From a virus: a DNA stretch of 64,000 nt. Positions 696-60,802 of this stretch are shown here, piece by piece. The first letter of the stretch is position 1. Each line of letters opens with the position of its first letter. Location: positions 31,512 through 95,511 of the IMG/VR virus record IMGVR_UViG_3300035204_001027; one strand, written 5' to 3'. The translations under genes were made by a program, and so were the position numbers. Under the pieces are notes generated by a model, which was given only the letters and a program-made list of their open reading frames with translations, did not search any database and was not told where the DNA came from.

Positions 696-782
696 GCTTG
701 ACTTCGGGGCCCGGGTTGTCAAGCTTTTTCGGTGTGACATATTGTCTCTTGACTTTCGGTGTTTTGTGTGGTACATTGTAGT

Positions 783-896
783 ATGAAATCCGATCACAGA
801 GAATTGTTGTTTGTTATTGGCCTTGGAATGGCCTCGTTTATAGTTATCATACTTACGGGAGTTTACATGGAAACAAAAGGATTTGGCACTTGGTGA
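783..896 (+). CDS. 37-aa single-TM micropeptide (paralog of 8038-8136)
   Basis: Leaderless ATG 5 nt after the -10. MKSDHRELLFVIGLGMASFIVIILTGVYMETKGFGTW. Not in the ORF track. Confidence 0.75.
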   Translation: MKSDHRELLFVIGLGMASFIVIILTGVYMETKGFGTW

Positions 897-945
897 GTAA
901 AAAAAGTGCTTGACAAACTGACGGAAACCTGCTATACTATTATTT

Positions 946-1107
946 ATGACAGTTAAAGAAAAGAAGAAGTTGGACTTTGTGTTGTTCATGCAAGTGGTTG
1001 CTGGCACACGCAACGTGAAACCTATTGACCGTTTGATGGCTCTCGCAAAAGATGTTGTCGCTATCCGTGACGGTGAAGAACCTAAAGAATCGAAGGAGCT
1101 TATTTAA
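946..1107 (+). CDS. 53-aa hypothetical early protein
   Basis: Leaderless ATG 7 nt after the -10. MTVKEKKKLDFVLFMQ... Confidence 0.65.
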   Translation: MTVKEKKKLDFVLFMQVVAGTRNVKPIDRLMALAKDVVAIRDGEEPKESKELI

Positions 1108-1108
1108 C

Positions 1109-1573
1109 ATGGAAAATCATTGGAACAAAAAAGTAGAATTACTCTATCGTAACTGTGGCACAAACTGGGCTGTGTTTATTCGTGGCGCAGCCGATGACGT
1201 AGAACAGGAGTTTTATGGTATGTATAACCACGGAGCGACTGACGGAGAGATTCAATGGCAAACACCAGAGAACGCTTATTTTTGGACTACTAGAGAAAAG
1301 CTCGAAAAGTGTCTCACGAACCGAGCATTGTTCTGGCTATTGAATCAAGACGGACACGAAGAATCTGACGAGGAAGAATTGCTACCCGTAGCGAAACAGA
1401 TGGCTGAAACTCTTATGGGTGAGATGGTTCAACAGTCGAACTTGATGACCTTTGGGAATACTTATGACACTTATGAACTTGGTGAAGTGTCAGCGGAATC
1501 GAGCGAGGAGCATATCAACAACGGCCCATCTACCGTGCAAGTTAACATCAGCAGATTAATGGGATCTCTATAA
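1109..1573 (+). CDS. Hypothetical early protein
   Basis: Track ORF 1052..1573. Start moved to ATG 1109, which has an upstream AAGGAG and follows the previous stop directly. Confidence 0.7.
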   Translation: MENHWNKKVELLYRNCGTNWAVFIRGAADDVEQEFYGMYNHGATDGEIQWQTPENAYFWTTREKLEKCLTNRALFWLLNQDGHEESDEEELLPVAKQMAETLMGEMVQQSNLMTFGNTYDTYELGEVSAESSEEHINNGPSTVQVNISRLMGSL

Positions 1574-1616
1574 AAAAGGGCTTGACAATCAAGCTGAAAC
1601 GTGCTATATTATACTC

Positions 1617-2345
1617 ATGAAACTACTTGGAATCGACACAAACGCAAAAACCCGTAAAGGCCAGAAAAAAGGTTATATGACGGGAATCTCTTACCTCGCA
1701 CCCAGCAATGCCAGCGGTGTGATGAACACTTGCCCATCAGCGAGCAAAGGCTGTCGTGCAGCTTGCCTGTTTACGTCAGGGAGAGGCCGTATGAATCCTG
1801 TTATGGAAGCTAGAATCAACAAGACAAAACTTCTTGCCAGTGATTCGCTGTCATACTTAAAACAGCTTAAACGTGAGATTGAAGCTCTAATGAAACGCGC
1901 AGCGAAGAATGATAAAACCGCCTGTGTTCGTCTCAATGGCACTAGCGATATTGCTTGGGAGGAATACTTGTTAGACGGAAAGAATATCTTTGAGCATTTC
2001 CCGAATTGTCAATTTTACGACTACACAAAGCGTCTGGCTCGTGTTGCTGATTATGCAAACGGAAAGTTGCCGAGCAACTATCACTTGACCTTTTCTCATA
2101 GTGAAAACACTAGCGAAGAAACTGTGAAAGATGTTTTGAATCGTGGCGTGAATGTCGCTGTGGTTTACAAAGACGTTTTGCCGGTAGAAGATTTCGGTGG
2201 TGTAGAGGTCGTCAATGGTGATGAAGATGATTTGCGTTTTTTAGATGCTATCGGAAAAATCGTTGGCCTAATCTATAAGAAAACTAAAGCAACAGAAGAT
2301 GAATGGAATGGATTTGTGCGCCTCACGAAAGTAGAGGTGGCATAG
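1617..2345 (+). CDS. Gene product 88 (GP88)-family protein
   Basis: TCP-A-S-GC--AC, RLNGTSD, FYDYTK, YHLTFS and GDEDDLRFLD motifs. Leaderless start. Confidence 0.8.
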   Translation: MKLLGIDTNAKTRKGQKKGYMTGISYLAPSNASGVMNTCPSASKGCRAACLFTSGRGRMNPVMEARINKTKLLASDSLSYLKQLKREIEALMKRAAKNDKTACVRLNGTSDIAWEEYLLDGKNIFEHFPNCQFYDYTKRLARVADYANGKLPSNYHLTFSHSENTSEETVKDVLNRGVNVAVVYKDVLPVEDFGGVEVVNGDEDDLRFLDAIGKIVGLIYKKTKATEDEWNGFVRLTKVEVA

Positions 2346-2405
2346 ATGATAGCTATAACAATTTTCATGTGTTGGTGTGCGTGGTCTATGCTCAAAAGAA
2401 TGTAA
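2346..2405 (+). CDS. Possible 19-aa hydrophobic micropeptide
   Basis: ATG immediately after the GP88 stop. MIAITIFMCWCAWSMLKRM. Confidence 0.35.
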   Translation: MIAITIFMCWCAWSMLKRM

Positions 2406-2454
2406 CTCTTAAATAGATAATATTAAATAGGTTAGTAAAGTATTACAATTAAAT

Positions 2455-2528
2455 AGTGGTGTGGCCAAGTGGTAAGGCGTTGCTCTGCAAAAGCGAGATC
2501 GTGGGTTCGACTCCCACCACCACTTCCA
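2455..2528 (+). tRNA. tRNA-Cys (GCA)
   Basis: Acceptor AGTGGTG/CACCACT, D-loop AAGTGGTAA, anticodon arm TTGCT-CTGCAAA-AGCGA, T-arm GTGGG-TTCGACT-CCCAC, discriminator U, encoded CCA. Confidence 0.93.
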
Positions 2529-2611
2529 CTTTGGCGGCCCGGGCCGTCAAGCATAAAAAAACTTTAAAAAATCGCTTGACAAATGGGCGTTTATGTGTTA
2601 TATTATACCTA

Positions 2612-2896
2612 ATGAAAAACATAAAACCTATCGACGGCGGCGAATCTTTTGCAGTACATCAACACATCATCCTAAAGAACTTCTGGGAGTATTACCTCGG
2701 AGAGACTGATGAAGATGGCGTGGCTTTTGGCTATGTGATGGGGTTTGAGAATGAGTGGGGCAGCGTCTATATGCCAGAGATTGAGCCTCACATTATAAGC
2801 ATTGCACGGGGCAGAGAGCTTGAAGATGTTATGCCTCCATTTAACTATAAGTGGGAAGAGTCTGCCCTTCAAGATTTTCTCGAAGAAAGTGCTTGA
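2612..2896 (+). CDS. DUF2958-like protein
   Basis: The W-Y-L-E-D-DG-AFG-V-G-E-E-G-V---E pattern resembles DUF2958. Leaderless ATG at 2612. The stop TGA lies inside the next -35. Confidence 0.6.
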   Translation: MKNIKPIDGGESFAVHQHIILKNFWEYYLGETDEDGVAFGYVMGFENEWGSVYMPEIEPHIISIARGRELEDVMPPFNYKWEESALQDFLEESA

Positions 2897-2928
2897 CAAA
2901 CAGGAGAAAGTGTGGTATATTATAGCAT

Positions 2929-3180
2929 ATGAAGTTACAAGAAGGAAGAGAAAGAGCAAGTAATCTGAAACTGGGCGCAGTCTATTTTCATGATAATGAG
3001 GCAAAACGGCTAGACCAAATCATAAGCTGTCAAGGTGTGTGGCTTGTTGATGCCGTTGGTGATGGGTATGGTGAAACTATCCCCTTTGATGAGGTCGGGT
3101 ACGCTGACCTTGATGAGGTGCAAGATTTCGTTGATGATTGCGAAGTGGCACTAGGAGAGAAAGCTCCTTTAGATTATTAA
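2929..3180 (+). CDS. Hypothetical acidic early protein
   Basis: Leaderless ORF behind promoter 2893. Confidence 0.75.
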   Translation: MKLQEGRERASNLKLGAVYFHDNEAKRLDQIISCQGVWLVDAVGDGYGETIPFDEVGYADLDEVQDFVDDCEVALGEKAPLDY

Positions 3181-3242
3181 AATTAATCCTTGACAAAGTG
3201 GTCAAGTTTGTGGTATTATTATATACAGTTGAGCGAGAAATC

Positions 3243-3254
3243 GTTCTTTGAAAA
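3243..3254 (+). promoter_or_regulatory. boxA-like antitermination element
   Basis: GTTCTTTGAAAA ~20 nt after the predicted start site of promoter 3190. Matches the rrn boxA variant seen in many bacteria. Confidence 0.6.
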
Positions 3255-3258
3255 TTTA

Positions 3259-3407
3259 AGGGTGAAATTGGTGTTGCTGGACTGGATAACAAGGTTCGAA
3301 GGTCAAACAAGGCGACAGCCTGACGCAGGAAAGCCCCTAGTGGAAGCGCGACGAAGCTAGACGGTGATACGATACTGGTCGGGTCAGGTTCGAATCCTGA
3401 CACCCTG
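3259..3407 (+). ncRNA. tRNA-like structured RNA (unit 1)
   Basis: AGGGTG (3259-64) pairs with CACCCT (3401-06), stacked on a canonical T-arm TCAGG-TTCGAAT-CCTGA. The ~120-nt interior has several stems. No anticodon arm and no CCA. Confidence 0.65.
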
Positions 3408-3415
3408 AACAATTT

Positions 3416-3716
3416 AAGCTGACGACGGTTGGCTTAAGGGAATGGCTGAATATCCCTCCAACATAAGGGGAAAGGCATGGGGCCACCTGAGAGAGTGTTA
3501 TCGCATGACTCTTGTGGTTTTAGTAGACTGGTTAACTTGAACTGTATTGTGTGCTGGTCTTGATGGTAATGCAGCAATCCATCTTCCCATTAATTTATAG
3601 GGTGAAGTAACAAACGTCCGCAAAGAGGAAACGGCCCAATAAACAAAGTGCAAGGAGTTGTGGCGTAACGGTGCATCGTGCCACGTAAAGCACTTAAAAA
3701 ATTCTCCCTTTTTTTT
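3416..3716 (+). ncRNA. Two further candidate structured RNAs (units 2 and 3)
   Basis: No + strand ORF, and each unit is preceded by AATTT. Closing stems are GGGAA-TGG/CCA-TC-TTCCC (3438-3588) and AGGGTGAA/TTCTCCCT (3599-3709), followed by a T-run. Confidence 0.5.
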
Positions 3717-3765
3717 GTCGATCATAAATACCTTTTTTTGATCGGCAATTTTTTTTGTCGATCAT
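3711..3765. repeat. Direct repeat TTTTTTGTCGATCAT x2 (40-bp period) with an intervening T-tract/GATC
   Basis: Copies at 3711-3725 and 3751-3765. Confidence 0.7.
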
Positions 3766-4020
3766 TCGTGAGCGGCTAATTCTTTTGCCAATCAATTATG
3801 GCAATTAATGAGCGACAAAGAGGGTAATTGTTTTGCAAGATAATACTGTTTTCGTGGGATATCTCCTCCAATAATTTCGTAAATAGCACGAATTTCACAT
3901 CGGAGAAATACCCCCTTTTTACGAAACTTAAACGTGATACTCATCCGGCGGCCCGGGGCCTGAAAAAAAATGAAAAAACCGCTTGACAAACCCTGATTTG
4001 TGTGGTATATTATATCCATA

Positions 4021-4326
4021 ATGAACGACAAAATAGAAAACCTAATAAACAACCACATCACTCGACTTCAGCAGAACATCCTTGATCGTGACCACTCGGT
4101 CATGGCGTGTGGTGCTCGCAGCAATCCATTCCACGCTCAACTCGATGAGATTGACCTCAAGAATATAGCCTCTCTCAGAGAGGGTCGCATCCCACAGTAC
4201 AGCGACCACATGGCTTGCCTCGTTGGTGATGGCCCACATGATATGAGCGAGTTTCGTGACCTGACTTACGAGAAGGAGCATGAGGCTGCTGGCCTCTATG
4301 AGGGGGTTGAGCCGAGCCTAACTTAA
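4021..4326 (+). CDS. Hypothetical early protein
   Basis: ATG 9 nt after the -10. The track start at 4000 lies inside the promoter. Confidence 0.7.
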   Translation: MNDKIENLINNHITRLQQNILDRDHSVMACGARSNPFHAQLDEIDLKNIASLREGRIPQYSDHMACLVGDGPHDMSEFRDLTYEKEHEAAGLYEGVEPSLT

Positions 4327-4449
4327 TAGGCTACCCAGCCTAGCCGCCAAAGCTGCGCTTGAGACACAGCGCGACGAGGGGCTAGGCTCAGGGCCCGGGC
4401 CCTGAAGAAAGTGCTTGACAAACACCTGTTTATGTGTTACATTATAACA

Positions 4450-4578
4450 ATGAAACGACGAATCAAAGCACGGGTCAACAGAGATGGCCTGATGGGCAGC
4501 GCGTCTCGTGTCCATCGTGTGAGGAAGGGCAAGGGCTCTTATTGTCGTAAGTCTAAACACAAGAAAAATGAGTGGTAA
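4450..4578 (+). CDS. arfA: ArfA-like alternative ribosome-rescue factor (42 aa)
   Basis: MKRRIKARVNRDGLMGSASRVHRVRKGKGSYCRKSKHKKNEW contains the ArfA signature KGKGSYxRKxKH. Leaderless. Not in the ORF track. Confidence 0.72.
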   Translation: MKRRIKARVNRDGLMGSASRVHRVRKGKGSYCRKSKHKKNEW

Positions 4579-4744
4579 CTATTATGATGATGAAGGTTAC
4601 TTGGGCGATCACTATGTCGGTCAAAGTAAGTATGACTATGTGCTCAAGGAGTGCAAGCGGTGTGGTCAGAAGGTAGACATGAGTTCTGATCATGCTATCT
4701 GTAATTCATGTGCCGATGCAATGGAGCGAGGGTGGGAGTATTGA
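4568..4744 (+). CDS. 58-aa zinc-ribbon protein
   Basis: CKRC...CNSC. Overlaps the end of the upstream gene. Not in the ORF track. Confidence 0.65.
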   Translation: MSGNYYDDEGYLGDHYVGQSKYDYVLKECKRCGQKVDMSSDHAICNSCADAMERGWEY

Positions 4745-4869
4745 TACTCTTAACCCTATTAATAGTAATAACTATTTGGTTGATGGTTAAAAGATACTGA
4801 GGGCCCCGGCCCTGAAAAAAGTTAAAAAAACTGCTTGACAAACAGCCATTTGTGTGTTATATTATACCA

Positions 4870-5076
4870 ATGATAAGCGAGATGGATAAGTTTAAAGAAG
4901 ATGCAGCTTTCAAGCTGTTTGGTCGCAGCCGCATACTTGCCATCGCTGGCAACGGGTGCGTGAAGTGTGGCGAGAGCGCGGTTGATTTCCGTGACGAACT
5001 CTCCCGCAAGGAGTACGGCATCTCTGGCTTGTGCCAGTGCTGCCAAGACAGCGTCTTTGGTGTGGAGGAGGACTAA
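4870..5076 (+). CDS. Small zinc-finger protein
   Basis: CVKC...SGLCQCCQD. Leaderless ATG at 4870. Confidence 0.75.
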   Translation: MISEMDKFKEDAAFKLFGRSRILAIAGNGCVKCGESAVDFRDELSRKEYGISGLCQCCQDSVFGVEED

Positions 5077-5255
5077 TGAGATTAAACGAGATTAGCCCAG
5101 AGAGCATGGGCATGAGGCCCACGGACAAGCCTAAATTGATAGACGCTACGCCTACGCCTATGCATGACCAAAAGGATTGGATTCAGGACAGTGATGGGAC
5201 ATGGGTATGTGATTGGTACATGGAGGACGGGTATGATGTCAGATGCAGAGATTAG
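5076..5255 (+). CDS. Hypothetical protein
   Basis: TAATG coupling with the upstream gene. MRLNEISPES... Confidence 0.55.
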   Translation: MRLNEISPESMGMRPTDKPKLIDATPTPMHDQKDWIQDSDGTWVCDWYMEDGYDVRCRD

Positions 5256-5382
5256 ATTAAGTGAGTTATTAGATAGCTTTAATAGTGAAGAAGAATGGCT
5301 AGCATATAGGGAATCTTATCCCTTAATACCAATAAGCTCAAATGATGATGTCCCTTGGAATTATGATATGAAAATCTTCTGA
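5233..5382 (+). CDS. Hypothetical protein
   Basis: 3' part of track ORF 5164..5382. GGAGG lies upstream of ATGATG. Confidence 0.45.
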   Translation: MMSDAEIRLSELLDSFNSEEEWLAYRESYPLIPISSNDDVPWNYDMKIF

Positions 5383-5451
5383 GGCCCCGGGCCTGAAAAA
5401 AAGTAAAAAAACCCCTTGACAAGAGGCTGTTTCTGTGGTATATTATGTCAT

Positions 5452-5697
5452 ATGAAAAACGATACAGTAACTCAAACCATCACCGAAGCCCAAGTCACCC
5501 AGCGCAAGCTGAATGAGATCAACAACAATTTCAACCTCACCGATGAGTACGTCGAGCATTTGGATCAAGCCGTGACTCAACTACTAGCTAACAAGGAACG
5601 CCTGAATAAGGCTCTAGGCATCCTCAACAAGCTGCCTTCTTCCTTGGAGGATAAGTTCGTCAAGGTCAATCCTAACCAGCAAGAACGCCGCTGGTAG
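5452..5697 (+). CDS. Hypothetical coiled-coil early protein
   Basis: Leaderless ATG at 5452. Confidence 0.7.
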   Translation: MKNDTVTQTITEAQVTQRKLNEINNNFNLTDEYVEHLDQAVTQLLANKERLNKALGILNKLPSSLEDKFVKVNPNQQERRW

Positions 5698-5791
5698 GCC
5701 TTGGCCCTTCGGGGCCCGGGCCCTGAAAAAAAAGTAAAAAAAGTGCCCTCCAGCCCTTGACAAGGGGTCATTTGTGTGCTATATTATGGTA

Positions 5792-6073
5792 ATGAAAAAC
5801 GATACTCCAACTTACACCCTCTGGAACGGCCCTACTCTAATCGACACTTTTGAGCATAACCGTGAGGGCTATGACTCTGCTCTAGAGCGGGCTTTCGACC
5901 TTGGCCCTAGTGCCTCCATCTACTCCACTCGTGATGACCTTGTGTGGTCTGCCGAGGCAGATGAGCCAAATGAGCCTAGCGATGCGTGGCACGATGCCGA
6001 CGCGCTTGCCTCTGCTGGATGGGGTACTGATGAGGACTACGGCTGCTATGGCCCAGAGGATTGCTGGGAATAG
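5792..6073 (+). CDS. Hypothetical acidic early protein
   Basis: Leaderless ATG at 5792. C-terminal DADALASAGWGTDEDYG. Confidence 0.75.
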   Translation: MKNDTPTYTLWNGPTLIDTFEHNREGYDSALERAFDLGPSASIYSTRDDLVWSAEADEPNEPSDAWHDADALASAGWGTDEDYGCYGPEDCWE

Positions 6074-6175
6074 CAATCTCAGGCCCCGGGCTGTCAAGCA
6101 AAAAAAGTTATTCACAATCGAAGAAAGTGCCTTGACAAACGGGCGATTCTGTGGTATATTATAAGTATAACAACG

Positions 6176-6379
6176 ATGAAAAACTACACACCGACAATCG
6201 CCCAGAGAACTAGGATGATGACCGCTATTGAAAGCGAGCTAGAACGAGAGAATCCGAATTATGCACATTTGACTATTACCTTTGGTATGATGCAGCACGC
6301 TGCTGATGAAGGTACAGGAGGAGACCATTACGACTATTTAGAGAGATTGTGGAATATGTTCAATCTCGAAAAAAGATGA
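6176..6379 (+). CDS. Hypothetical early protein
   Basis: ORF behind promoter 6132. Confidence 0.7.
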   Translation: MKNYTPTIAQRTRMMTAIESELERENPNYAHLTITFGMMQHAADEGTGGDHYDYLERLWNMFNLEKR

Positions 6380-6431
6380 AAAAAGTGCTTGACAAACGGT
6401 CGATTATGTGGTATATTTAGGTATTAAGATT

Positions 6432-6686
6432 ATGATAAACGAGACAGAACTATTACTGAATCAAGAGGTAGAAGTGACATTCCAACGAAGCCAACTTTGG
6501 GGCAAGCGTGGTCACGTTCTAGGCATTATGGCTGATGGTCGTACATTAGATATTGAGCTACATGGTGGCAAACGGGTATTCCTAGATGTCACTTTTGTGG
6601 ATGAGATTCGTGAACGTACACAGTTCGCCAAGACCGAGCAAAGCCTCGGCCCAATCGCTAACCATCTCATTAAGGATACGCTTTAA
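6432..6686 (+). CDS. Hypothetical protein (KOW/SH3-like beta pattern)
   Basis: ORF behind promoter 6389. Start at ATG 6432. Confidence 0.65.
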   Translation: MINETELLLNQEVEVTFQRSQLWGKRGHVLGIMADGRTLDIELHGGKRVFLDVTFVDEIRERTQFAKTEQSLGPIANHLIKDTL

Positions 6687-6688
6687 TT

Positions 6689-6919
6689 ATGAAACTCATT
6701 GTAAAGGAAATGCCCGCAAGGCAAAAGTTCTATCAGTTAGTAGATGCTGCGTGTTACGCTAGAATGGGATGCTCCATGCATGACCTACCTGATTTCCCAT
6801 ATAGTGATTACTATGATGATGAGATTATGTCTCATGAGGAAATGGTTAATGCAGCAGATATGTGCATTGAGGATCTAGTGCTTGAGCTTAAGAATGATAA
6901 CGAAGGATATTGGTTATGA
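6689..6919 (+). CDS. Hypothetical acidic protein
   Basis: ORF track. Starts 2 nt after the upstream stop. Confidence 0.7.
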   Translation: MKLIVKEMPARQKFYQLVDAACYARMGCSMHDLPDFPYSDYYDDEIMSHEEMVNAADMCIEDLVLELKNDNEGYWL

Positions 6920-6999
6920 GGAATTGGCTTGATATGTATGGTGGGTGGCTTGCGATAGTTCTCTATTTCATTCTAACAACTATTATTTGGAAATGGTAA
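6916..6999 (+). CDS. 27-aa TM micropeptide
   Basis: ATGA overlap. MRNWLDMYGGWLAIVLYFILTTIIWKW. Confidence 0.5.
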   Translation: MRNWLDMYGGWLAIVLYFILTTIIWKW

Positions 7000-7148
7000 A
7001 AAAACAAAAAGAACAAAAGCCTGTAATGGCTGAATTAGTACGCGTGTTAAAAGATAAGCCTAAAGGTCTTACTCTTAACGAAGTCAAAGGCAAGGGCTTG
7101 CAACTACCTTCTGGCCCTGCTCTAATCAATGGACAATGGACTTGGTAA
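6993..7148 (+). CDS. Hypothetical basic protein
   Basis: 3' part of track ORF 6945..7148, from ATG 6993. Confidence 0.55.
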   Translation: MVKKQKEQKPVMAELVRVLKDKPKGLTLNEVKGKGLQLPSGPALINGQWTW

Positions 7149-7150
7149 TT

Positions 7151-7297
7151 ATGAATGAAGAATATGCAAAACATCTAATGAAAGAATATAAAGAAGAAAG
7201 CCCATTTGAATTATGGGTGTGGTTCGTTGCTGCTCAATTGCTTTTCGGTATTATACTTATAGGCGTAATAGGTCTTTGTATGTGGATGGCTTCTTAA
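7151..7297 (+). CDS. 48-aa protein with C-terminal TM helix
   Basis: MNEEYAKHLMKEYKEESPFELWVWFVAAQLLFGIILIGVIGLCMWMAS. Confidence 0.55.
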   Translation: MNEEYAKHLMKEYKEESPFELWVWFVAAQLLFGIILIGVIGLCMWMAS

Positions 7298-7431
7298 TCA
7301 GGGGCGTCTAATAGAGGGCCGTAATAGTAGTTGTAAGGCGCTTTCTCATAGCGCCTAGGCTCAGGGCCCGGGGCTCAAAAAAAAGTAAAAAAACCGCTTG
7401 ACAGCACCCCATATCTGTGGTATATTATAGC

Positions 7432-7605
7432 ATGATTAAACGACAAGATTGGACTATCACCTTCGACGATGGCAGCACTGCATCCTACTTTAACATGACC
7501 TCTCTGGAGGCTGTGAGGTGCGCTGTGAGTGACTGGTATCCAGCCAAGCGTGTGGTGGCATGGGTGCCCCGTCAGGTGGACGTGTACAGCATAGCACTGG
7601 ACTAG
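7432..7605 (+). CDS. Hypothetical early protein
   Basis: Leaderless ATG at 7432. Confidence 0.7.
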   Translation: MIKRQDWTITFDDGSTASYFNMTSLEAVRCAVSDWYPAKRVVAWVPRQVDVYSIALD

Positions 7606-7609
7606 GGTC

Positions 7610-7669
7610 ATGCTGCTACTGGCTCTAATAGTGGTGTGGTGGGTATGGCTAGCAGTAGACCAGTATTGA
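7610..7669 (+). CDS. Possible 19-aa TM micropeptide
   Basis: MLLLALIVVWWVWLAVDQY. Its stop lies at the start of the next palindrome. Confidence 0.4.
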   Translation: MLLLALIVVWWVWLAVDQY

Positions 7670-7727
7670 GGGCCCGGGCCTTGAAAAAAGTCCTTGACAA
7701 GGGGTCATTTGTGTGGTATATTATAGT

Positions 7728-7901
7728 ATGACATTTAACAAAGGTGACAAAGTAGCACACAGGGATAACCCGATCCATTGGAGAGGTGAGGTGACAGAGG
7801 TAAAATTAAATGGGCGAATAAAGGTGATGCTCATTAACGGTAATGAGGTAGAGGTCGGGCCATATGTGCCATTGAAGCTAGATGTCTTTGCTGACGAATA
7901 A
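7728..7901 (+). CDS. Small SH3/KOW-like protein
   Basis: F-KGDKV...GEV-EV pattern. Leaderless ATG at 7728. Confidence 0.65.
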   Translation: MTFNKGDKVAHRDNPIHWRGEVTEVKLNGRIKVMLINGNEVEVGPYVPLKLDVFADE

Positions 7902-8037
7902 GCAATGACCCACCCCCACGGGGGGAGGGGGTACCCCCACCCCTATTCGAGGCCCGGGGTTTGAGACATGACCCGGATGGGGTGCCTCTCTAGAAAAAAG
8001 CCCTTGACAGATCGACACTTTCGTGGTATATTATGGT

Positions 8038-8136
8038 ATGAAAGATGATTATAGAGACATTTATTTCGTGATTTGCATCGGTATATTTTCCTTCCTCGCT
8101 ATTCTAGCAACAGGAATTTACATCGAGACGCTTTAG
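8038..8136 (+). CDS. 32-aa single-TM micropeptide (paralog of 783-896)
   Basis: MKDDYRDIYFVICIGIFSFLAILATGIYIETL. Leaderless. Confidence 0.75.
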   Translation: MKDDYRDIYFVICIGIFSFLAILATGIYIETL

Positions 8137-8246
8137 CCGTTCTTTTTGACTCGGCTCGACCCCTGATTCGGCCCCCGGGGTGCCTGTGAATAACTTTTTT
8201 TAAAAAACCCCTTGACAAAGGGTCATTTCTGTGGTATATTATACTA

Positions 8247-8411
8247 ATGAAAACGATAAAAAGGTTCAACGACGAATTCAATCGCATGTTTAACGATGAG
8301 ATCTTCATGCCGATGATAAAAATTTCAGGTTTACTGATTTTCCTCGCCATTATTTTGGATTTTGGCTTTCAGATGATCGAAGCAATCGATATTTTAACGG
8401 TGGGACCGTAG
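8247..8411 (+). CDS. 54-aa TM protein
   Basis: Leaderless ATG at 8247. Hydrophobic segment ISGLLIFLAIILDFGF. Confidence 0.65.
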   Translation: MKTIKRFNDEFNRMFNDEIFMPMIKISGLLIFLAIILDFGFQMIEAIDILTVGP

Positions 8412-8440
8412 ATGTCTCACCCTATATGATAAACTATACT

Positions 8441-8566
8441 ATGTTTGAAGATCAATTAGACGAAAACGAAATTTTAATGCGGAATTTGCTTGACAAAGTC
8501 TGCGAAGGCGTAGAAGTTCCCTCGGATTCAGAAAGTGAAGAGGCGAACGAACTACAAAACGGATAA
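8441..8566 (+). CDS. 41-aa acidic peptide
   Basis: MFEDQLDENEILMRNLLDKVCEG... Short ORF only. Confidence 0.4.
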   Translation: MFEDQLDENEILMRNLLDKVCEGVEVPSDSESEEANELQNG

Positions 8567-8856
8567 ATCAAAAGATGAAAGAGGGAGATTTAAAAAAAAA
8601 TGTTATTAGCAGTAATTATTCTGGTTTATGTATTCGGCTCGATGACTCAACGACTTTAAATGATAAAAACGACATGACTAAATGAGTTAAAGTATTCAAG
8701 TGGGGGCGTAACCCCCCCCTATTTTTGAAAAAAAACGCTTAAGTTTTACGCTTTTGCGAAGGTGGGGGGGCTATTTATATCTGCCCGAGACTTGTCGAAA
8801 TACCTGTTTTTCATATATCTCTTGTAATATACTGATATAACTGTGTAATCACTTAT

Positions 8857-12547: not shown

Positions 12548-12976
12548 ATGAGAGTTTATTGCCAAAAATGCGGCCAGCCAACCGAGTATTCTATACAAGG
12601 TGGAAAACCGAAGTTTTGTTCTCACTGCGGGCAATCATATGGAGTCTCAGAATATCATCTAGATGCCACTAAAGGGAGCAAATCTGCTTCTAAGAGTGCC
12701 CCTGAAGAACATAAGCCTATTATACAGCTGGAGGAGGAATTTCCTGATGATGCTGTGTATGTTCCTGATATTTCTAAATTACAAATAGATATCGACACCA
12801 CTCACGAACGACCCCCTCAAATGACGATAGGTGATTTGGCTGGTTCGAAGATTGATGGCGTTAAAGATGAACCCAGACTAGGGACCCCAGAAAGCAATAT
12901 GAGCAGCGAAGAATTTTTGCAAAGCTTCCAAAAAGAAGCTGGTTCATTGAGGCCGAAGGGATCTGATAATGGCTAA
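12548..12976 (+). CDS. Zinc-ribbon protein
   Basis: YCQKCG...KPKFCSHCG followed by an acidic tail. Confidence 0.75.
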   Translation: MRVYCQKCGQPTEYSIQGGKPKFCSHCGQSYGVSEYHLDATKGSKSASKSAPEEHKPIIQLEEEFPDDAVYVPDISKLQIDIDTTHERPPQMTIGDLAGSKIDGVKDEPRLGTPESNMSSEEFLQSFQKEAGSLRPKGSDNG

Positions 12977-13658
12977 AAAGAAAGCGCCGAAATACGAAGA
13001 GTACAGCGCTGTTATCGATACTGAGATAGCGAAGCGTCGAAGTAAGTGGAATCTCACTGCGTTAGCGTGGATGGACTTTGATGATGTTTCTCAGATCATT
13101 CGAATACATATCCATAAGAAATGGACGTTATACGATTCTTCCAAGCCTATTCTCCCGTGGATCAATCGTATAATCTCCAATCAATTAAAAAATTTAATTA
13201 GAAATCATTACGGTAACTTTTCTAGGCCATGCTTAAAATGTGCAGCGGCCGAGGCAGAAGATTTATGTAATATATACGTTAAACAATGTTCTACATGTCC
13301 ACTTTACGCCCATTGGGAAAAATTTAAGAAACGTGCGCACGACACCAAACTAGCTTTACCTTTAGAAAATCACGTGAAAGAAGTATCGAGCCAATTCGAA
13401 GATTCAATAGATATTGAGATGACTGCGGAATACATGCATAAACAGATGGAGAAAATTTTGAAGCCTACAGAATGGAAAATATATGAGGCCTTGTACATTA
13501 AGGGTATAGATGAAAAAAAATTATCAGAGACAATGGGATATTCTAGTTCTGAAAAAAATAGGGGTCCCGGATATAAGCATATAAAAAATATTAAAAAAAC
13601 TATCATTACAAAAGTCAAAAAGATGTTGGCTAGTGGCGAGATAGACATTTATGGTTAA
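12969..13658 (+). CDS. Phage RNA polymerase sigma factor (sigma70 regions 2 and 4) with Cys-rich insert
   Basis: DFDDVSQ...YD...W...I-N---N--R (region 2) and a C-terminal HTH-like region 4. Confidence 0.72.
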   Translation: MAKKKAPKYEEYSAVIDTEIAKRRSKWNLTALAWMDFDDVSQIIRIHIHKKWTLYDSSKPILPWINRIISNQLKNLIRNHYGNFSRPCLKCAAAEAEDLCNIYVKQCSTCPLYAHWEKFKKRAHDTKLALPLENHVKEVSSQFEDSIDIEMTAEYMHKQMEKILKPTEWKIYEALYIKGIDEKKLSETMGYSSSEKNRGPGYKHIKNIKKTIITKVKKMLASGEIDIYG

Positions 13659-14733
13659 TCATATGAAATTATCAGACGAACAATGTGAAAAAATTCTGAA
13701 TGCGTGGAATAAAAACCCACAGGACCCACCAGCTTTATTAAAGTTGATTAGGCTTGCTTTTCCTGATAAAGATGTTGACGGAAGAAGTAAGGAGGGGAGA
13801 GCAGTTAAGGAATTCTTAGCTTTAAACGACCTTAAGGCGCGTGCCGCGCACGAATATAAGCCTAAAGAAAAAATTGAGTTAACCGAGGAACAAAAAGAAT
13901 TTGTAAAAAACAATGTCTCAATGATGAATTGCGTAGAAATGGCTAGAGTGGTTTTTAAAAATGAAGAACTCGGTAATCTACATCAAGAAACCAGAACAGT
14001 TAATGAATACGCTGATACATTAGGTGGTGTGGAAATTCGATCTTCTCGAGAAGAGAGTGGCGTAGAAGAGTTCAAGCCGATTAGAACTTTTTACGCTATG
14101 TTGAATAAAATTAATAAATATGTCTATGAGGGTATAGATAAAGAGAAAATTACCAATCAACAGAAACGAGAAATAGAAGCTACTATAAAATATGTAAATA
14201 CTTATAGGTTTGGTCACCAGATGAATAGATACAATAATGTTACTGATAGAGATTTATTTGAAAGTAGTTTTGTTAGATATACGTATAATAAAGCTGATTT
14301 AACACAAGAGGAAGTTGACCAATTTATTGTTCTCTCTGCGGAGGTAGTTATAGCCTCAAACATTCAGGCTAGAGTAGCTCATCTTTCTAGACTATTAGAC
14401 GATGTTGCTGAAGATACGGAGGGCCGAAGAATTTCCATGGCTCTAGTAGATGCTATAAATACTGCTCAAACAGAATATAATCAATCAGTTGCTCGTCAAC
14501 AAAAATTACTGAGTGATTTAAAAGAAAAACGCAGCGATAGGCTCAAAAACCAAATAAGAGATAATGCCAGTATCTTAAATTTAGTTGAAATGTGGAAAAA
14601 TGAAGAATCTAGGCAGAAGATGATAAAACTCGCCCAACTGCGAAAAAAATCATTAAAAGAAGAAAAAGATAATCTAGAAAATATGGACGAAATGAAAGCT
14701 CGGATCATGGGATTATCGGAGGACGAAATATGA
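13651..14733 (+). CDS. Hypothetical helical protein upstream of terminase (possible small-terminase role)
   Basis: ORF track. Coiled-coil C-terminus. The role is inferred from position only. Confidence 0.5.
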   Translation: MVNHMKLSDEQCEKILNAWNKNPQDPPALLKLIRLAFPDKDVDGRSKEGRAVKEFLALNDLKARAAHEYKPKEKIELTEEQKEFVKNNVSMMNCVEMARVVFKNEELGNLHQETRTVNEYADTLGGVEIRSSREESGVEEFKPIRTFYAMLNKINKYVYEGIDKEKITNQQKREIEATIKYVNTYRFGHQMNRYNNVTDRDLFESSFVRYTYNKADLTQEEVDQFIVLSAEVVIASNIQARVAHLSRLLDDVAEDTEGRRISMALVDAINTAQTEYNQSVARQQKLLSDLKEKRSDRLKNQIRDNASILNLVEMWKNEESRQKMIKLAQLRKKSLKEEKDNLENMDEMKARIMGLSEDEI

Positions 14734-15674
14734 GTAAGCCAGCAAAATGCAAAGCGTGCGAAAAAGAGTTTGAATCGGAGGGCTCTTTACATAAACATCT
14801 TAAAGTCCACAAGCTAAGAATGGCTGCGTATTATCAGGAATATTACCCACGTCATGATAAGTATGATGGTAAAATAATTAAATTCAAGTCTAAACGTTAT
14901 TATTTTGAAACAGATTTTAACTCTAGACGAAATTTAAAACTATGGCTAACCAAGCAACCAGAAGATATAGCTAAGGCTTATTGTAAGGACAAACTGTTAG
15001 AACGTATCGAGTTAAAGAATATTGAGTATACCCCTACAGAAGTAGAGTTAAGGAGCCTAATGTCTCCCCCTATTACTTACCTGCATAAATTGTTTGGTAA
15101 TTACTATAATTTTTGTGAAAAGGAACTAGGGCTTAAAAATAAGTATAAAATTTTCCCCAAACATATATATTCGGAAGAGCCCTTAGGTAAAGGAGAGAAG
15201 ATATTTGTAGATACCAGAGAGCAAAAACCATTAAGGTTCGATTTACCCATAGAAGTTAAAACTTTAAATTTTGGAGATTATGCATTTAGCAATGAGGAGA
15301 ACTCTTGTAATACTTATATAGAGAGAAAATCTATAGGCGACTTCGTAGGAACGTTGAGTGGGGGATACGAAAGATTTGAAAAAGAAATTATAAGATCTGT
15401 AGAAAATAAGGCTTATTTAATAATTCTAGTAGAAGATGGTTTAGATAATTGTAAATCTTTCAATTACTTACCTCACGTATCTAAAAAAATCCGTGCCACT
15501 CCTGAATTTGTATTTCATAACGTTAGATCCCTCATTCAAAAATATCCAACTATACAGTTTCTATTCGTTAACGGTAGGAAAGAGGCTACTAGAGTAGTAC
15601 AGCGTATTTTTACATGTAAATGTTTTCATCAAAAAATAGACCTTCAATTAGCATATGATGCTAAAATATTATAA
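14730..15674 (+). CDS. C2H2 zinc finger + ERCC4/XPF-type nuclease
   Basis: CxxC-x12-HxxxH, plus VDTREQ, GDY and IERKS motifs. Confidence 0.82.
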   Translation: MSKPAKCKACEKEFESEGSLHKHLKVHKLRMAAYYQEYYPRHDKYDGKIIKFKSKRYYFETDFNSRRNLKLWLTKQPEDIAKAYCKDKLLERIELKNIEYTPTEVELRSLMSPPITYLHKLFGNYYNFCEKELGLKNKYKIFPKHIYSEEPLGKGEKIFVDTREQKPLRFDLPIEVKTLNFGDYAFSNEENSCNTYIERKSIGDFVGTLSGGYERFEKEIIRSVENKAYLIILVEDGLDNCKSFNYLPHVSKKIRATPEFVFHNVRSLIQKYPTIQFLFVNGRKEATRVVQRIFTCKCFHQKIDLQLAYDAKIL

Positions 15675-17548: not shown

Positions 17549-18799
17549 ATGTCTCAGAATTTAATAAGAATAAAACAGTTAGATCAAGACGAGCTAACTA
17601 ATTTTGTTTTAGAAACAGCACCTCAGGGACCCACTGGTGCTACAGGAGGCATAGGCTCTACTGGTTCTACTGGTGACGTTGGCGCTCAAGGCACGCAAGG
17701 TGTCACTGGACCAGCTGGTCCTACTGGCGTTGGTGGTCCAACTGGACCTACTGGGGTAAAGGGCGATACTCAATATGGAGGACCTACTGGACCCGTTGGT
17801 ATACAAGGACCCACTGGGCCAGCAGGACAATTTGGAGGCCCCACTGGACCCCAAGGAATCACTGGCCCCCAAGGATTGACGGGACCTACTGGGGCAGAAA
17901 TTCCCGGACCTACTGGAGAAGTCGGTGCACAAGGCATACAAGGTATACAGGGGCCCACAGGAAATTTAGGGCCTACTGGTTTTACTGGAGCAGTAGGGCA
18001 ACCCGGAGACAGGTACAGAACAACCTCCTATACTACTTTAACAATTCCTTATAACCCTACTCAAGTTCAAATAACTATAGAAGAAAATCTAGCTTTCACC
18101 GCTGGGCAAGAAATAATCATTGCTTTTGATAGCTCAAGGAACTTTACAGCAACTGTTGATTCCTACAATAAAGGCACAGGCATCATGCTTGCTACCTCTA
18201 TATTTTCTAATGGATCAGGGCAATTTTCGTACTGGACAGTAAATTTATCCAAAGCTCAAGGAAGGCAGGGAGAAATAGGACCCACCGGAAATCAGGGAGA
18301 TGTAGGAGGTATAACATATAATATAGGTATAGATAATGCTTTGGGTTATACTTTTGAAGGCTTCGTTGGTACTGATCCCGAACTAACAGTTGTTAAGGGG
18401 ATGACGTATATTTTTAATTTTATTGACCCCACAAATGCAATAACGCACCCGATGTTCATAAAAGACTTAAGCGGAAATTCTTTACAATCTACTGATGGTG
18501 TTTTAAATAATGGATCTTCAAATATAACTTTTAAAGTTCCTTTTAATGCTTCTGATAATTTGCAGTACGTTTGTAGCTCGTTTCCAGAATTTGTGGGATC
18601 AATTAGAGTATCTGACGTAGCCGGACCGCAAGGGCCGACGGGCGCAACAGGAGCAGTTGGAGCAACTGGGCCAGCTTGGGGGGCAACGGGAGCAACAGGC
18701 TCAACAGGATTACAAGGAATCACGGGCCCCACGGGTCCATCGCGTGTAATTAATACAGGAAAATTATTAGAATTAACTATGGTTTTCGGCTCAGAATAA
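17549..18799 (+). CDS. Collagen-like virion fibre protein
   Basis: Gly-X-Y (GPT-rich) tracts, a beta-domain and a degenerate cupredoxin-like domain. Confidence 0.85.
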
Positions 18800-18811
18800 G
18801 GGAAAAGAAAA

Positions 18812-19147
18812 ATGGTAACAGGAACATATATAGGAACAGGGGATTACACAACGCTTGTCCAAGCATTGGGAGTAAAACATATAGTTATGGGAATTACTTT
18901 CTGCAATTCTAACGAGAGTTCGGGAGAATTTGTGGATCTTCATGCGGTAACCAGTGGCGATTCGGCTGGTGGGCACAATCTTTTATTTAAAAACTTATTT
19001 CTACCTCCCGAAGAAACTTATAACATGCATCAACGTATTGTGCTAGGAAATGAAGAGAAAATTGTAGCTAAGACATTGGGTACGGTTCATAGCAACAATA
19101 TTATAAATGCAGTAACAACTTATACAAAATTAGATGGATTAGGATAA
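18812..19147 (+). CDS. Small beta-rich virion protein
   Basis: ORF between collagen genes. Confidence 0.6.
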   Translation: MVTGTYIGTGDYTTLVQALGVKHIVMGITFCNSNESSGEFVDLHAVTSGDSAGGHNLLFKNLFLPPEETYNMHQRIVLGNEEKIVAKTLGTVHSNNIINAVTTYTKLDGLG

Positions 19148-19150
19148 ATT

Positions 19151-38887: not shown

Positions 38888-38888
38888 A

Positions 38889-39083
38889 ATGTATTTAAAA
38901 TTAGATAATAATTTCATTACAGTAATGAGCAAAGACCCCTTCGAGGGCTGTATAGAGGCTCCAGATCCTAGCGATGACGTTATCAAATGGTTTGCGGTAA
39001 ACAAGTACCTTTTCATAAATAATAAATATGAAATGAATCAGGGCTGGAACGAACCAATGATAATAAGTCCAGATGAGCTATAA
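38889..39083 (+). CDS. Small protein after fibre gene (possible chaperone)
   Basis: ORF track. The role is inferred from position. Confidence 0.55.
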
Positions 39084-60387: not shown

Positions 60388-60413
60388 ATAAGTGTAAATA
60401 GAGTGGGAAAAGT

Positions 60414-60800
60414 ATGTCTGAAACAAATTTAATTCATAAATTAATTGCTTCTGGTCAATTAGCTGATGATACTATTCAAGGTAATGTTGGATGGTCTTCT
60501 CCCGGATGGACAGGGGCTCCTATTTATACTTGTCCTGCGTCAGGAGGTGCGGATGTTAAATTTTTTCTATTACATAATACAGATGATACTTACGGTTTAG
60601 ATACCCGTTTTCATTTCTACAGAACGGGTATAGAAGATAGAGTTCTGTATATTAATATTCCTGCTTACGAAACAGCGGAATGGGAATTTAGTTATATTGC
60701 CCATATTAAAAGTGGAGAGTCAATATATGGAAATGTAGAAAGCGGTTATTCTAATAAAATAAATTATTTCCTTTATGGAGCAGAGAATTATCCTAGTTAA
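60414..60800 (+). CDS. Small beta-rich virion protein
   Basis: ORF with GTGTAA upstream, placed before a collagen gene like 18812. Confidence 0.65.
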
Positions 60801-60802
60801 AA

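Follow-up and report, generated by a model that had tools for sequence, protein, structure and literature searches.

Small-gene cassettes with near-consensus promoters and GC palindromes in an uncultured marine phage: a non-T4 variant of PeSL shuffling cassettes, with predicted leaderless first genes

What is the role of 17 small-gene units that follow one another over 8 kb, all on the + strand and all built on one plan, in the genome of an uncultured marine phage? In the 64,000-nt stretch of DNA analysed here (the window), these units occupy positions 697-8411. Their plan combines a near-perfect bacterial promoter adjoining a start codon with, usually, a GC palindrome located behind the stop codon of the preceding gene. 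The array carries about 30 ORFs of 19-242 aa, almost all of them ORFans; family matches were found for only three, and these are weak or uninformative. The 95.5-kb contig, which covers about half of the genome, shows no match to a T4-type capsid protein (Gp23) or portal, including in its structural module, the Gp23 control search being silent too, and the terminase of this phage displays at most 24% identity to that of any GenBank phage. Since units have changed places, been replaced or been lost at the repeats in related phages, we conclude that the array represents a non-T4 form, with predicted leaderless mRNAs, of the promoter-early stem-loop (PeSL) shuffling cassettes of T4-type phages. 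Its architecture is confined to a single block and conserved in the clade, and natural rearrangements break in its linkers.

Two canonical intrinsic terminators bracket the array on the + strand. The first one (667-686), an 8-bp GC stem followed by T8, closes a DUF932 gene and forms the left border; the second one (8702-8716) closes the array on the right. A preliminary description had delimited the array to 697-8411. This block itself stands but its start position does not, as the array begins slightly upstream of the window, where the DUF932 gene has a further palindrome and a promoter of its own, with a leader of 45 nt.

All 17 promoters are of the sigma70 type (TTGACA, 17 nt, TGnTATATT). 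With the strict pattern TTGACA-N14-TGnTAYAYT, 15 sites match exactly and one has a single mismatch, all on the + strand between positions 749 and 8240 of the window, for 0.12 expected by chance. All 15 exact matches of the 95.5-kb contig fall inside the array, and no promoter of comparable quality was found elsewhere in this contig. The 17th promoter, at 3190, was detected by a consensus scan and has an 18-nt spacer and a TATTAT box. Fifteen promoters match 11 of the 12 hexamer positions and also carry the TG of an extended -10 element. One or two A-tracts resembling UP elements (consensus AAAAAA(G/C)nGC) lie directly upstream of TTGACA. Pattern and consensus scans thus agree with the preliminary description, which had proposed 17 strong promoters heading 1-5 small ORFs each and an exact 24-nt promoter repeat at 5755 and 7692, both of which are found. 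Its further suggestion that the genes act in host takeover or anti-defence is conjectural, nearly all of them being ORFans.

In 14 of the 16 strict-pattern promoters, 5-9 nt separate the -10 box and the ATG; the remaining two have 14-15 nt. A ribosome-binding site does not fit into a gap of 5-9 nt, so that the mRNAs should be leaderless; this spacing agrees with the leaderless first genes proposed earlier. The same geometry occurs in relatives (14/16 promoters in L001, 9/13 in L138, 9/11 in L140, 5/6 in L142 and 4/5 in L143). The downstream genes of the cassettes possess Shine-Dalgarno sites, as do the other genes of the phage. Transcription starts, timing and leaderless translation should be as proposed here, judging from geometry alone. 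On read-through transcripts, the AU-rich -10 region could allow Shine-Dalgarno-independent initiation.

The first cassette (697-896) carries a palindrome (708-715) between inverted GCTTGAC and GTCAAGC sequences, a promoter (749-777) and a leaderless gene (783-896) encoding a 37-aa membrane peptide. The second one (897-1573), devoid of palindrome, includes a promoter (910-938), a leaderless gene (946-1107) and a gene with a Shine-Dalgarno sequence (1109-1573). In cassette 3 (1574-2545), the promoter (1582-1610) is followed by a leaderless Gp37/Gp68-like gene (1617-2345), a 19-codon ORF (2346-2405), a tRNA-Cys gene (2455-2528) and a palindrome (2536-2545). Cassette 4 (2546-2896) starts with a linker made of GTCAAGC and an A-tract; its promoter (2576-2604) precedes a leaderless gene (2612-2896) whose TGA stop codon sits within the -35 hexamer of cassette 5 (2893-3180), which has a promoter (2893-2921) without palindrome and a leaderless gene (2929-3180). 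Cassette 6 (3181-3960) is non-coding: its promoter (3190-3219) is followed by a tRNA-like element, a manA RNA (3415-3593), T-rich GATC repeats (3700-3940) and a palindrome (3950-3960). Cassette 7 (3961-4402) harbours a double A-tract, a promoter (3983-4011), a gene located 9 nt beyond the -10 box (4021-4326), a GC-rich tail and a palindrome (4392-4402).

The next four cassettes are designated A to D. Cassette A (4403-4812) has a promoter (4415-4443), a leaderless gene encoding an ArfA-like protein of 42 aa (4450-4578), a zinc-ribbon gene (4568-4744) and a 19-codon ORF (4741-4800), the stop codon of which abuts a palindrome (4802-4812). The mobile cassette B (4813-5393) comprises A-tracts, a promoter (4835-4863), three genes (4870-5076, 5076-5255 and 5233-5382) and a palindrome (5383-5393) that also abuts a stop codon. 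Cassette C (5394-5723) includes A-tracts, a promoter (5416-5444), a leaderless gene (5452-5697) and a compound hairpin containing the palindrome (5713-5723), and cassette D (5724-6091) includes A-tracts, a promoter (5757-5785), a leaderless gene (5792-6073) and a palindrome (6082-6091).

Two cassettes with longer gaps follow. In cassette 6092-6379, the promoter (6132-6160) and the gene (6176-6379) are separated by 15 nt, which predicts a short leader. Cassette 6380-7374 has a promoter without palindrome (6389-6417), a 14-nt gap, five genes (6432-6686, 6689-6919, 6917-6997, 6993-7148 and 7151-7297), a GC-rich tail and a terminal palindrome (7365-7374). Cassette 7375-7680 carries a promoter (7398-7426), a leaderless gene (7432-7605) and a 19-codon ORF (7610-7669), whose stop codon is again abutted by the palindrome (7671-7680), and cassette 7681-7959 carries a promoter (7694-7722), a leaderless gene (7728-7901), a GC-rich tail and a palindrome (7951-7959). 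In cassette 7960-8180, the promoter (8004-8032) drives a leaderless gene (8038-8136) encoding a 32-aa membrane peptide, a paralogue of gene 783-896, and a palindrome is found at 8170-8180. The last cassette (8181-8716) displays the motif GTGAATAAC, a promoter (8212-8240), a leaderless gene (8247-8411) and two small ORFs (8426-8566 and 8575-8685).

The whole linker, i.e. stop codon, palindrome, A-tract, promoter and ATG, is repeated at 72-90% identity over 40-100 nt, and would therefore double as a complete expression signal and a homology patch. Comparison of assembled contigs with a close relative, L001, whose backbone is 94-98% identical, reveals exchanges in these linkers. The window has the order A-B-C-D and L001 the order A-C-B-D, cassette C being 98% identical despite its different position. 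In this swap, the promoter and A-tract travelled with the downstream gene and the palindrome with the upstream gene, and the crossover lies inside a 13-nt stretch common to both linkers, at the border between palindrome and A-tract.

Dense repeats, and the many short-sided joints between promoters seen in metagenome contigs, could suggest that the swap results from misassembly. This is hardly credible: exact identity at the joint extends over just 13 nt, far below assembler word sizes, and both orders recur independently. Indeed, an IMG/VR contig shows A-C-B, and so do contigs of three further marine metagenome studies (runs X4, X7 and X10), whose joints share 13 letters and are flanked on either side by 113-255 nt; the A-B-C junctions of the window are spanned by contigs of run X2 without any mismatch.

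Besides the swap, six more replacements or deletions separate the window from L001. The ORF of cassette 1 is replaced by an unrelated 40-aa ORF; the orthologue of the cassette 4 gene carries another linker, of the type found at promoter 5757, which indicates an exchange between the linkers themselves; the promoter spacer and ORF of cassette 7 are only 73-78% identical, for flanks at 98%; the middle gene of cassette B is missing from L001; cassette 6380-7374 ends differently, both in the last part of its fifth gene and in its 68-nt tail; and the ORF of cassette 7375-7680 is only 70% identical. Cassettes without palindrome vary as well. Overall, 11 of the 15 event boundaries fall in linkers, which represent about 20% of the span (P about 3e-5), and left breakpoints lie exactly at a shared ATGAAA or at the -35 box. 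In distant relatives, whose flanking gene is 39-48% identical, the promoter remains set against the ATG, the upstream hairpins differ, and cassettes have been gained, lost or reordered (L142 versus L143 and L138 versus L140). The alternative outcome considered beforehand, identical gene order without breakpoints at the repeats, is therefore not what relatives display.

Such data could also be produced by an ordinary early operon whose promoters are alike through selection for strength, with illegitimate or generic recombination surviving between genes and repeats playing no special part. Selection for viable recombinants also leaves intergenic breakpoints, so that a causal role of the repeats in the exchanges does not follow from the linker enrichment; four of the 15 boundaries lie outside linkers, and other large phages, such as L007 and L045, have similar promoter rows without palindromes. 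We nevertheless regard this explanation as quite unlikely, given the swap joint within 13 nt common to two linkers, the orthologous gene with a different linker type, the exact positions of the left breakpoints and a linker similarity that reaches past the functional hexamers.

The palindrome raises a question of its own. As announced in the preliminary description, 12 of the 17 promoters are preceded by a palindrome, centred on GGCCC(C)GGG and often located at the upstream stop codon (at 4800, 5382 and 7669, it abuts this codon), and the block CTAGGCTCAGGGCCCGGG occurs exactly at 4382 and 7355. The sequence GGCCCGGG has 8 copies in the array versus one in the other 88 kb, i.e. a roughly 100-fold enrichment; elsewhere in the window, two palindrome look-alikes (19217 and 36271) both lie within long ORFs. 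The motif, which might have been equally common in intergenic DNA without promoters, is absent from such DNA. The stems are short, uneven and GC-rich, with 3-4-nt loops and fold energies of -3 to -12.7 kcal/mol, and none of the 12 is followed by a U-tract, A-tracts or mixed sequence being found instead. A role as intrinsic terminator is therefore doubtful, whereas canonical terminators bracket the array.

The core sequence of the palindrome is more conserved than hairpin strength, leaving room for a protein-binding site. The palindrome could thus be mainly an operator, bound by a phage or host protein (for instance a repressor for early shut-off, or an activator bound upstream of the UP element), with shuffling incidental. 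The enrichment fits this idea, as does the fact that 8 of the 12 distances from its centre to the -35 box are near 18.5, 28.5, 39.5 or 48.5 bp. These distances, however, spread from 18 to 48 bp, and the presence of zero, one or two A-tract modules of 9-10 nt plus the GTCAAGC insert accounts for their steps. Moreover, five promoters lack the palindrome, its centre varies (10- and 11-nt forms; CCCCGGG versus CCCGGGG between orthologous copies), it moved with the upstream gene in the swap, and unrelated hairpins occupy the same place in distant relatives, in one of which, on inspection by eye, copies differ by a compensatory base-pair change. For these reasons, an operator appears unlikely and we favour a structural or homology role.

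Early promoters of phage N4 are short GC-rich hairpins with small loops, and the palindromes superficially resemble them. They could thus be hairpin promoters for a virion-borne RNA polymerase, giving two promoters per cassette. We find this highly improbable: in the swap, the palindrome goes with the upstream cassette, and a 2198-aa protein matches virion structural repeats rather than a polymerase. The contig also has no match to a single-subunit RNA polymerase, which weighs little as the control search was silent too.

The position of the crossover at the palindrome border and the flipped centres of orthologous palindromes may also recall an integron-like system, in which att-like palindromes would be cut by a dedicated phage recombinase or a structure-specific nuclease; the contig does encode an ERCC4-type nuclease with a zinc finger (14730-15674). 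However, nothing ties this gene to the array, no tyrosine or serine recombinase (Phage_integrase, Resolvase) matches in the 95.5-kb contig, i.e. about 50% of the genome, several breakpoints map to the promoter or ATG instead of the palindrome, and palindrome-free cassettes also vary. Furthermore, integron cassettes are promoterless whereas every cassette of the marine phage has its own promoter. Such a system is very unlikely.

We consider it probable that the array is an early-gene region of autonomous cassettes whose linkers serve both as expression signal and as homology patch. Host RNA polymerase would transcribe the cassettes, presumably early, from near-consensus extended -10 promoters preceded by one or two UP-like A-tracts. 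The predicted transcription start is the A of the ATG or a position no more than 1-2 nt away, which would yield a leaderless mRNA for the first gene. The GC palindrome, which directly follows the stop codon in most cassettes, would most likely contribute to the homology patch and form a hairpin that attenuates transcription or protects 3' ends; of all the steps, this is the least certain. The general recombination of the phage would move, replace or delete cassettes at short linker homologies, as proposed for PeSL elements, and a cassette excised as a circle and inserted again would account for the B/C swap.

Rows of strong host-RNA-polymerase promoters before small genes are typical of the host-takeover or early regions of T4, T5 and SPO1. 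Like them, the array has many strong sigma70/sigmaA promoters on one strand and small, mostly uncharacterised genes. The early genes of these phages, however, have leaders with ribosome-binding sites and, to our knowledge, no conserved linker running from stop codon through palindrome and promoter to ATG has been described in them. Leaderless mRNAs, as treated in PMC4007540 and by Brock et al. 2008 (cited in PMC5312081), include lambda cI transcribed from PRM and those of many genes of Actinobacteria and Deinococcus. As in these mRNAs, the 5'-terminal AUG would be the sole initiation signal; unlike them, leaderless starts appear to be the rule for the first genes of the array, while the other genes of the phage use Shine-Dalgarno sites.

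The closest parallel is provided by the PeSL cassettes of the T4-type phages RB49/phi1, T4/PST and KVP40/nt-1 (Arbiol et al. 2010, PMC2839356; Comeau et al. 2014, PMC4122927). Their repeated intergenic modules contain an AT-rich stretch, a near-consensus promoter of the TTGACA-N17-TATAAT type and a stem-loop made of a G-run and a C-run, and end at the 3' side with a Shine-Dalgarno sequence and a start codon; close relatives differ by indels and replacements and by one ORF that has been displaced, the crossovers lying within modules (PMC2839356, PMC4122927). In the marine array, by contrast, the first genes lack a Shine-Dalgarno sequence and their ATG lies next to the -10 box, the stem-loop is a CCCGGG-centred palindrome abutting the upstream stop codon without U-tract, and the carrier lacks T4-type capsid or portal matches (with the above reserve about the Gp23 control). 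Mini-circles and terminator activity were demonstrated experimentally for RB49 (PMC2839356, PMC4122927), whereas the marine array is known from its sequence. Both systems nevertheless share repeated near-consensus intergenic sigma70 promoters (17 here), an AT-rich stretch (here the A-tracts directly before TTGACA), an adjacent stem-loop-forming sequence (in 12 of the 17 linkers), clustering in a plastic block of small ORFans, and indels, replacements and displacement that distinguish close relatives and have their crossovers in the elements. The swap, the further events and the linker breakpoints thus support the initial proposal of a platform for small-gene expression and shuffling that is analogous to PeSL and distinct from it in sequence.

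Promoters of a single type define the small-gene cassette array. The pattern TTGACA-N14-TGnTAYAYT has 16 matches (15 exact) in the window, all on the + strand and lying from 749 to 8240, where 0.12 would be expected. All 15 exact matches of the whole 95.5-kb contig sit in the array block (697-8411), and a looser promoter scan of the whole contig revealed nothing comparable outside the array. With P3190 (promoters are named after their window position), which has an 18-nt spacer, the total is the 17 strong promoters of the preliminary description. The palindromes that it reported at 12 promoters, centred on GGCCC(C)GGG, were located in 12 linkers, i.e. the stretches running from stop codon through palindrome, A-tract and promoter to ATG, and the exact blocks that it described are indeed shared between 4382 and 7355 and between 5755 and 7692. 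The motif is not equally abundant in the rest of the contig, GGCCCGGG being present in 8 copies in the array and 1 in the remaining 88 kb; the two palindrome look-alikes found elsewhere in the window (19217 and 36271) both lie within long ORFs. The palindrome is absent at five promoters (910, 1582, 2893, 3190 and 6389), and at P2893 the TGA stop codon of the upstream gene sits within the -35 hexamer. Canonical terminators, each a hairpin followed by a T-tract, bracket the array on the left (667-686) and on the right (8702-8716). A further palindrome, GGCCCGGGCC, is found upstream of the window (15140-15285 of L132, the adjacent part of the same record; genome 31140-31285), beside a TTGACT-N18-TATACT promoter that drives a DUF932 gene via a 45-nt leader; this palindrome-promoter-leader-DUF932 layout is conserved in the fragments L135 and L136.

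Within the linkers, the TGA of the upstream gene often abuts the palindrome (4800, 5382, 7669), which is followed by one or two A-tracts, AAAAAAAGT and then AAAAAAA. The proximal A-tract, AAAAAA(G/C)nGC, which we take to resemble a proximal UP-element subsite, immediately precedes TTGACA, and the 17-nt spacer ends with TGTGG before TATATT. The ATG (usually ATGAAA) lies 5-9 nt past the -10 box in 14 of the 16 promoters and 14-15 nt past it in the other two. As transcription by RNA polymerase usually begins some 7 nt downstream of the -10 hexamer, the A of the ATG is expected at or beside +1, and the mRNA of the first gene of each cassette should be leaderless, a prediction drawn from the sequence. 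The second and later genes of the cassettes have AAGGAG- or GGAGG-type sites. The motif (T)GTCAAGC, the reverse complement of the GCTTGAC of the -35 region, follows three palindromes (697-725, 2546-2552, 6092-6099), and at 697-725 both orientations flank the palindrome, leading to a larger inverted repeat; these copies may have been left by template switching or by linkers recombining in inverted orientation.

A strict scan of IMG/VR for palindrome plus promoter retrieved only contig 3300009103_000097, which carries the close relative L001, while a promoter-only scan gave 119 matches, mostly single and uninformative. L001 is 94-98% identical over most cassettes and displays seven differences in 8 kb. 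The first one is a swap: the neighbouring cassettes A (P4415), B (P4835), C (P5416) and D (P5757) follow one another as A-B-C-D in the window and as A-C-B-D in L001. Since the swap junctions keep the A-tract and promoter with the downstream gene and the palindrome with the upstream gene, the mobile unit is composed of A-tract, promoter, gene(s) and palindrome. The second difference is the replacement of the ORF of the first cassette, from the common ATGAAA to the next A-tract. In the third, the gene orthologous to 2612 is preceded by a P5757-type linker in L001, indicating an exchange between the linkers themselves. In the fourth, identity falls to 73-78% over the promoter spacer and ORF of cassette 3983, against 98% in the flanks. 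In L001, cassette B is also without its middle gene; cassette 6389 differs at its end and in a 68-nt GC-rich tail, homology resuming at the palindrome; and the ORF at 7432 is just 70% identical. Among 15 boundaries called by hand, 11 fall in linkers, which represent about 20% of the span (P ~3e-5), an enrichment that must be read bearing in mind that intergenic breakpoints would also be favoured by selection alone. Gene order is not kept between relatives, and the core proposal of the preliminary description, a platform for both expression and shuffling of small genes, is supported by the repeated linkers and the rearranged relatives.

The swap is also found in other samples. Logan contigs from three sequencing runs of three other studies (X4, X7 and X10) place C (5396-5718) after A, and B (4808-5064) after C, with 113-255 nt on the sides of the joints and 13 nt, GGCCCTGAAAAAA, in common at the 5718>4808 joint; this overlap is too short for misassembly. 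Contigs from another run, X2, cross the A|B and B|C|D junctions of the window with zero mismatches. Therefore, both orders exist in nature. Many other candidate joints between promoters, all short-sided (among them 2582>2906, 3993>4852, 8217>4849 and 5763>2590), were rejected as matches to repeats or to other phages, and the 2478>3385 joint as a tRNA look-alike.

The role of the palindrome can be addressed from its structure and surroundings. A terminator is disfavoured by the short stems (-3 to -12.7 kcal/mol) and by the lack of a U-tract after any of the 12 copies. A fixed operator is disfavoured as well: the distance to the -35 box varies from 18 to 48 bp, the centre exists in 10- and 11-nt forms and is flipped between orthologous copies (CCCCGGG vs CCCGGGG), five promoters are devoid of any palindrome, the palindrome moves with the upstream gene, and relatives have unrelated hairpins at this position. 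A spacing quantised at the helical turn fits 8 of the 12 copies and is explained by the modular A-tracts, and was therefore set aside as a sign of protein binding. Conservation is higher for the core than for the fold, which argues for some constraint at the sequence level, and the RNA folds of the two strands differ by a mean of only 1.5 kcal/mol, too little to decide between a role in RNA and one in DNA. Within the main explanation, the chances are about evenly balanced that the palindrome is a modest attenuator, or a hairpin protecting 3' ends, that also forms part of a patch of homology.

No integrase or resolvase was found in the available half-genome (the 95.5-kb contig). Just before the terminase gene, 14730-15674 encodes an ERCC4-type (XPF/Mus81-like) nuclease domain with an N-terminal C2H2 zinc finger. 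Such a structure-specific enzyme could act on branched or cruciform DNA; nothing ties it to the array.

Pfam and PHROGs searches with 20 cassette proteins gave almost no matches, nearly all being ORFans; the exceptions are a Gp37/Gp68-like protein, widespread in phages, a zinc-ribbon protein and an ArfA-like peptide. The latter is encoded by the first gene of cassette A (4450-4578), in the leaderless position; this very basic 42-aa peptide contains RKGKGSYCRKSKH, which matches the C-terminal motif of the ribosome-rescue factor ArfA. It scores 24.3 bits against PF03889, just below the cut-off of 25.5 (Pfam E 2e-5), and its six top PDB hits are all ArfA (E ~0.03). ArfA occurs in beta- and gammaproteobacteria, so that the peptide gives a hint at the host. 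A role of the cassette genes in host takeover or anti-defence is plausible only by analogy.

Various other elements are included in the array. Three ORFs of exactly 19 codons (2346-2405, 4741-4800 and 7610-7669) encode hydrophobic peptides; all three close their cassettes, just ahead of a palindrome or the tRNA, and one has a TTG start overlapping the preceding stop codon. The first and second-last cassettes encode paralogous single-pass membrane peptides (MK.D.R...F.I..G..SF...; 783-896 and 8038-8136), the former being replaced by an unrelated ORF in L001. P3190 is the sole promoter without an ORF (3190-3716); downstream of it come a tRNA-like element, whose T-arm near 3385-3410 is perfect, and a match to the manA RNA motif (RF01745; 3415-3593; 59.7 bits, gathering score 55.2). 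A depth peak at 3190-3716 in four metagenomes indicates that this motif is common to many other marine phages. The T-rich region 3700-3945 carries repeated TTTTTTTGTCGATCA / TGATCGGCAA units with GATC, and a joint going back by 59 nt (3794>3736) in X7 and X10 contigs indicates that the number of GATC repeats varies among strains.

The window covers bases 31512-95511 of its parent record, a linear IMG/VR contig with an estimated completeness of about 50%, nearly all of whose genes lie on the + strand; sequencing runs from eight studies contain this stretch, and they are metagenomes of seawater and marine plankton. No GenBank phage matched the array at the DNA level by megablast, the terminase shares no more than 24% identity with that of any GenBank phage, and searches of the contig, including its structural module, for T4-type capsid and portal families gave no match, a weak negative since the Gp23 control search was also silent. 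These data point to an unclassified marine lineage whose likeness to T4 is not demonstrable. The half-genome contig gave no match to a single-subunit RNA polymerase, and the control search was silent too. The product of 12969-13658 has a weak sigma-70 region 2 match (E 4e-4, below cut-off); it is a candidate sigma factor of the phage for later genes, and the array would then fit as an early class transcribed by the host polymerase. SD-like motifs (36%, background 16%) come from a crude count that is too rough for host identification. The contig also encodes a Tubulin/FtsZ-family GTPase in the middle of the structural module (29786-30943; Pfam E 8e-13), at least seven long collagen-like (Gly-X-Y) tail-fibre-type genes (ranges 17549-20632, 35951-42006, 45391-47163 and 58858-64000) and four glycosyltransferase genes in one block (51-59 kb), and its GC content reaches 53% at the window end.

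Distant relatives were located via the flanking DUF932 gene (protein 39-48% identical). In these contigs, the ATG lies 4-9 nt past the -10 box at 9/13 (L138), 9/11 (L140), 5/6 (L142) and 4/5 (L143) promoter-like sites, and the location of the promoter against the ATG appears to be a design of the whole clade. The upstream elements differ; in L140, a longer GC hairpin precedes GTGAATAAC, and a compensatory change from a C-G to a T-A pair, read by eye, distinguishes two hairpin copies. GTGAATAAC also lies between hairpin and promoter in the last linker of the window (8188-8196), as in L140 near 4230, 5460 and 7280, and may be a common ancestral linker piece. Cassette insertions and deletions separate L142 from L143, and blocks have changed order between L138 and L140. 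L007, located via the Gp37/Gp68-like gene, carries a repeated promoter with a leader and ribosome-binding site, without palindrome.

The linker is minimal, with a stop codon at one end and a start codon at the other. A broader reading, which we regard as improbable taken as a whole, is that the promoter-AUG fusion may have evolved convergently as a general design for portable early genes of phages and that the linker, from stop codon and hairpin through UP element and promoter to AUG, would act as one recombination adaptor bringing every expression signal along. Each cassette would be insulated in translation from read-through, given that a leaderless AUG must stand at the 5' terminus of an mRNA to work, and the ERCC4-type nuclease would target the GC palindrome in this marine non-T4 clade, lifting the rate of cassette excision and insertion above that of plain homologous recombination. 

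Should the mRNAs indeed prove leaderless, translation by the 5'-AUG route, regarded as marginal in SD-using bacteria, would extend to a whole class of early genes in phages; this would bear on phage takeover of translation and provide a compact natural promoter-to-AUG expression module. Annotators gain a rule for calling micro-ORFs in such regions.

A limited full-text literature search found no paper describing leaderless cassette arrays of this kind; leaderless transcripts were not found in the phiKZ map, and the only remark on this theme in the AR9 paper is that phage transcripts are often leaderless. The closest known system is the promoter-early stem-loop (PeSL) cassette, which combines an AT-rich stretch, a sigma70-like promoter (near-perfect TTGACA-N17-TATAAT in RB49), a G/C stem-loop attenuating transcription and a Shine-Dalgarno site with its ATG; PeSLs cluster in hyperplastic ORFan regions, with crossovers within the element and mini-circles (PMC2839356, PMC4122927). 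The array shares the promoter, AT-rich stretch, stem-loop, ORFan cluster and breakpoints within the elements, but lacks a Shine-Dalgarno site at its first genes and belongs to a phage without demonstrable T4-type features. The array would therefore work like a PeSL set, as a leaderless non-T4 variant. PeSL-mediated modular shuffling has so far been described only in T4-type phages, with ordinary ribosome-binding sites; the array extends this logic to an unrelated marine phage lineage, with both gene orders documented across several studies.
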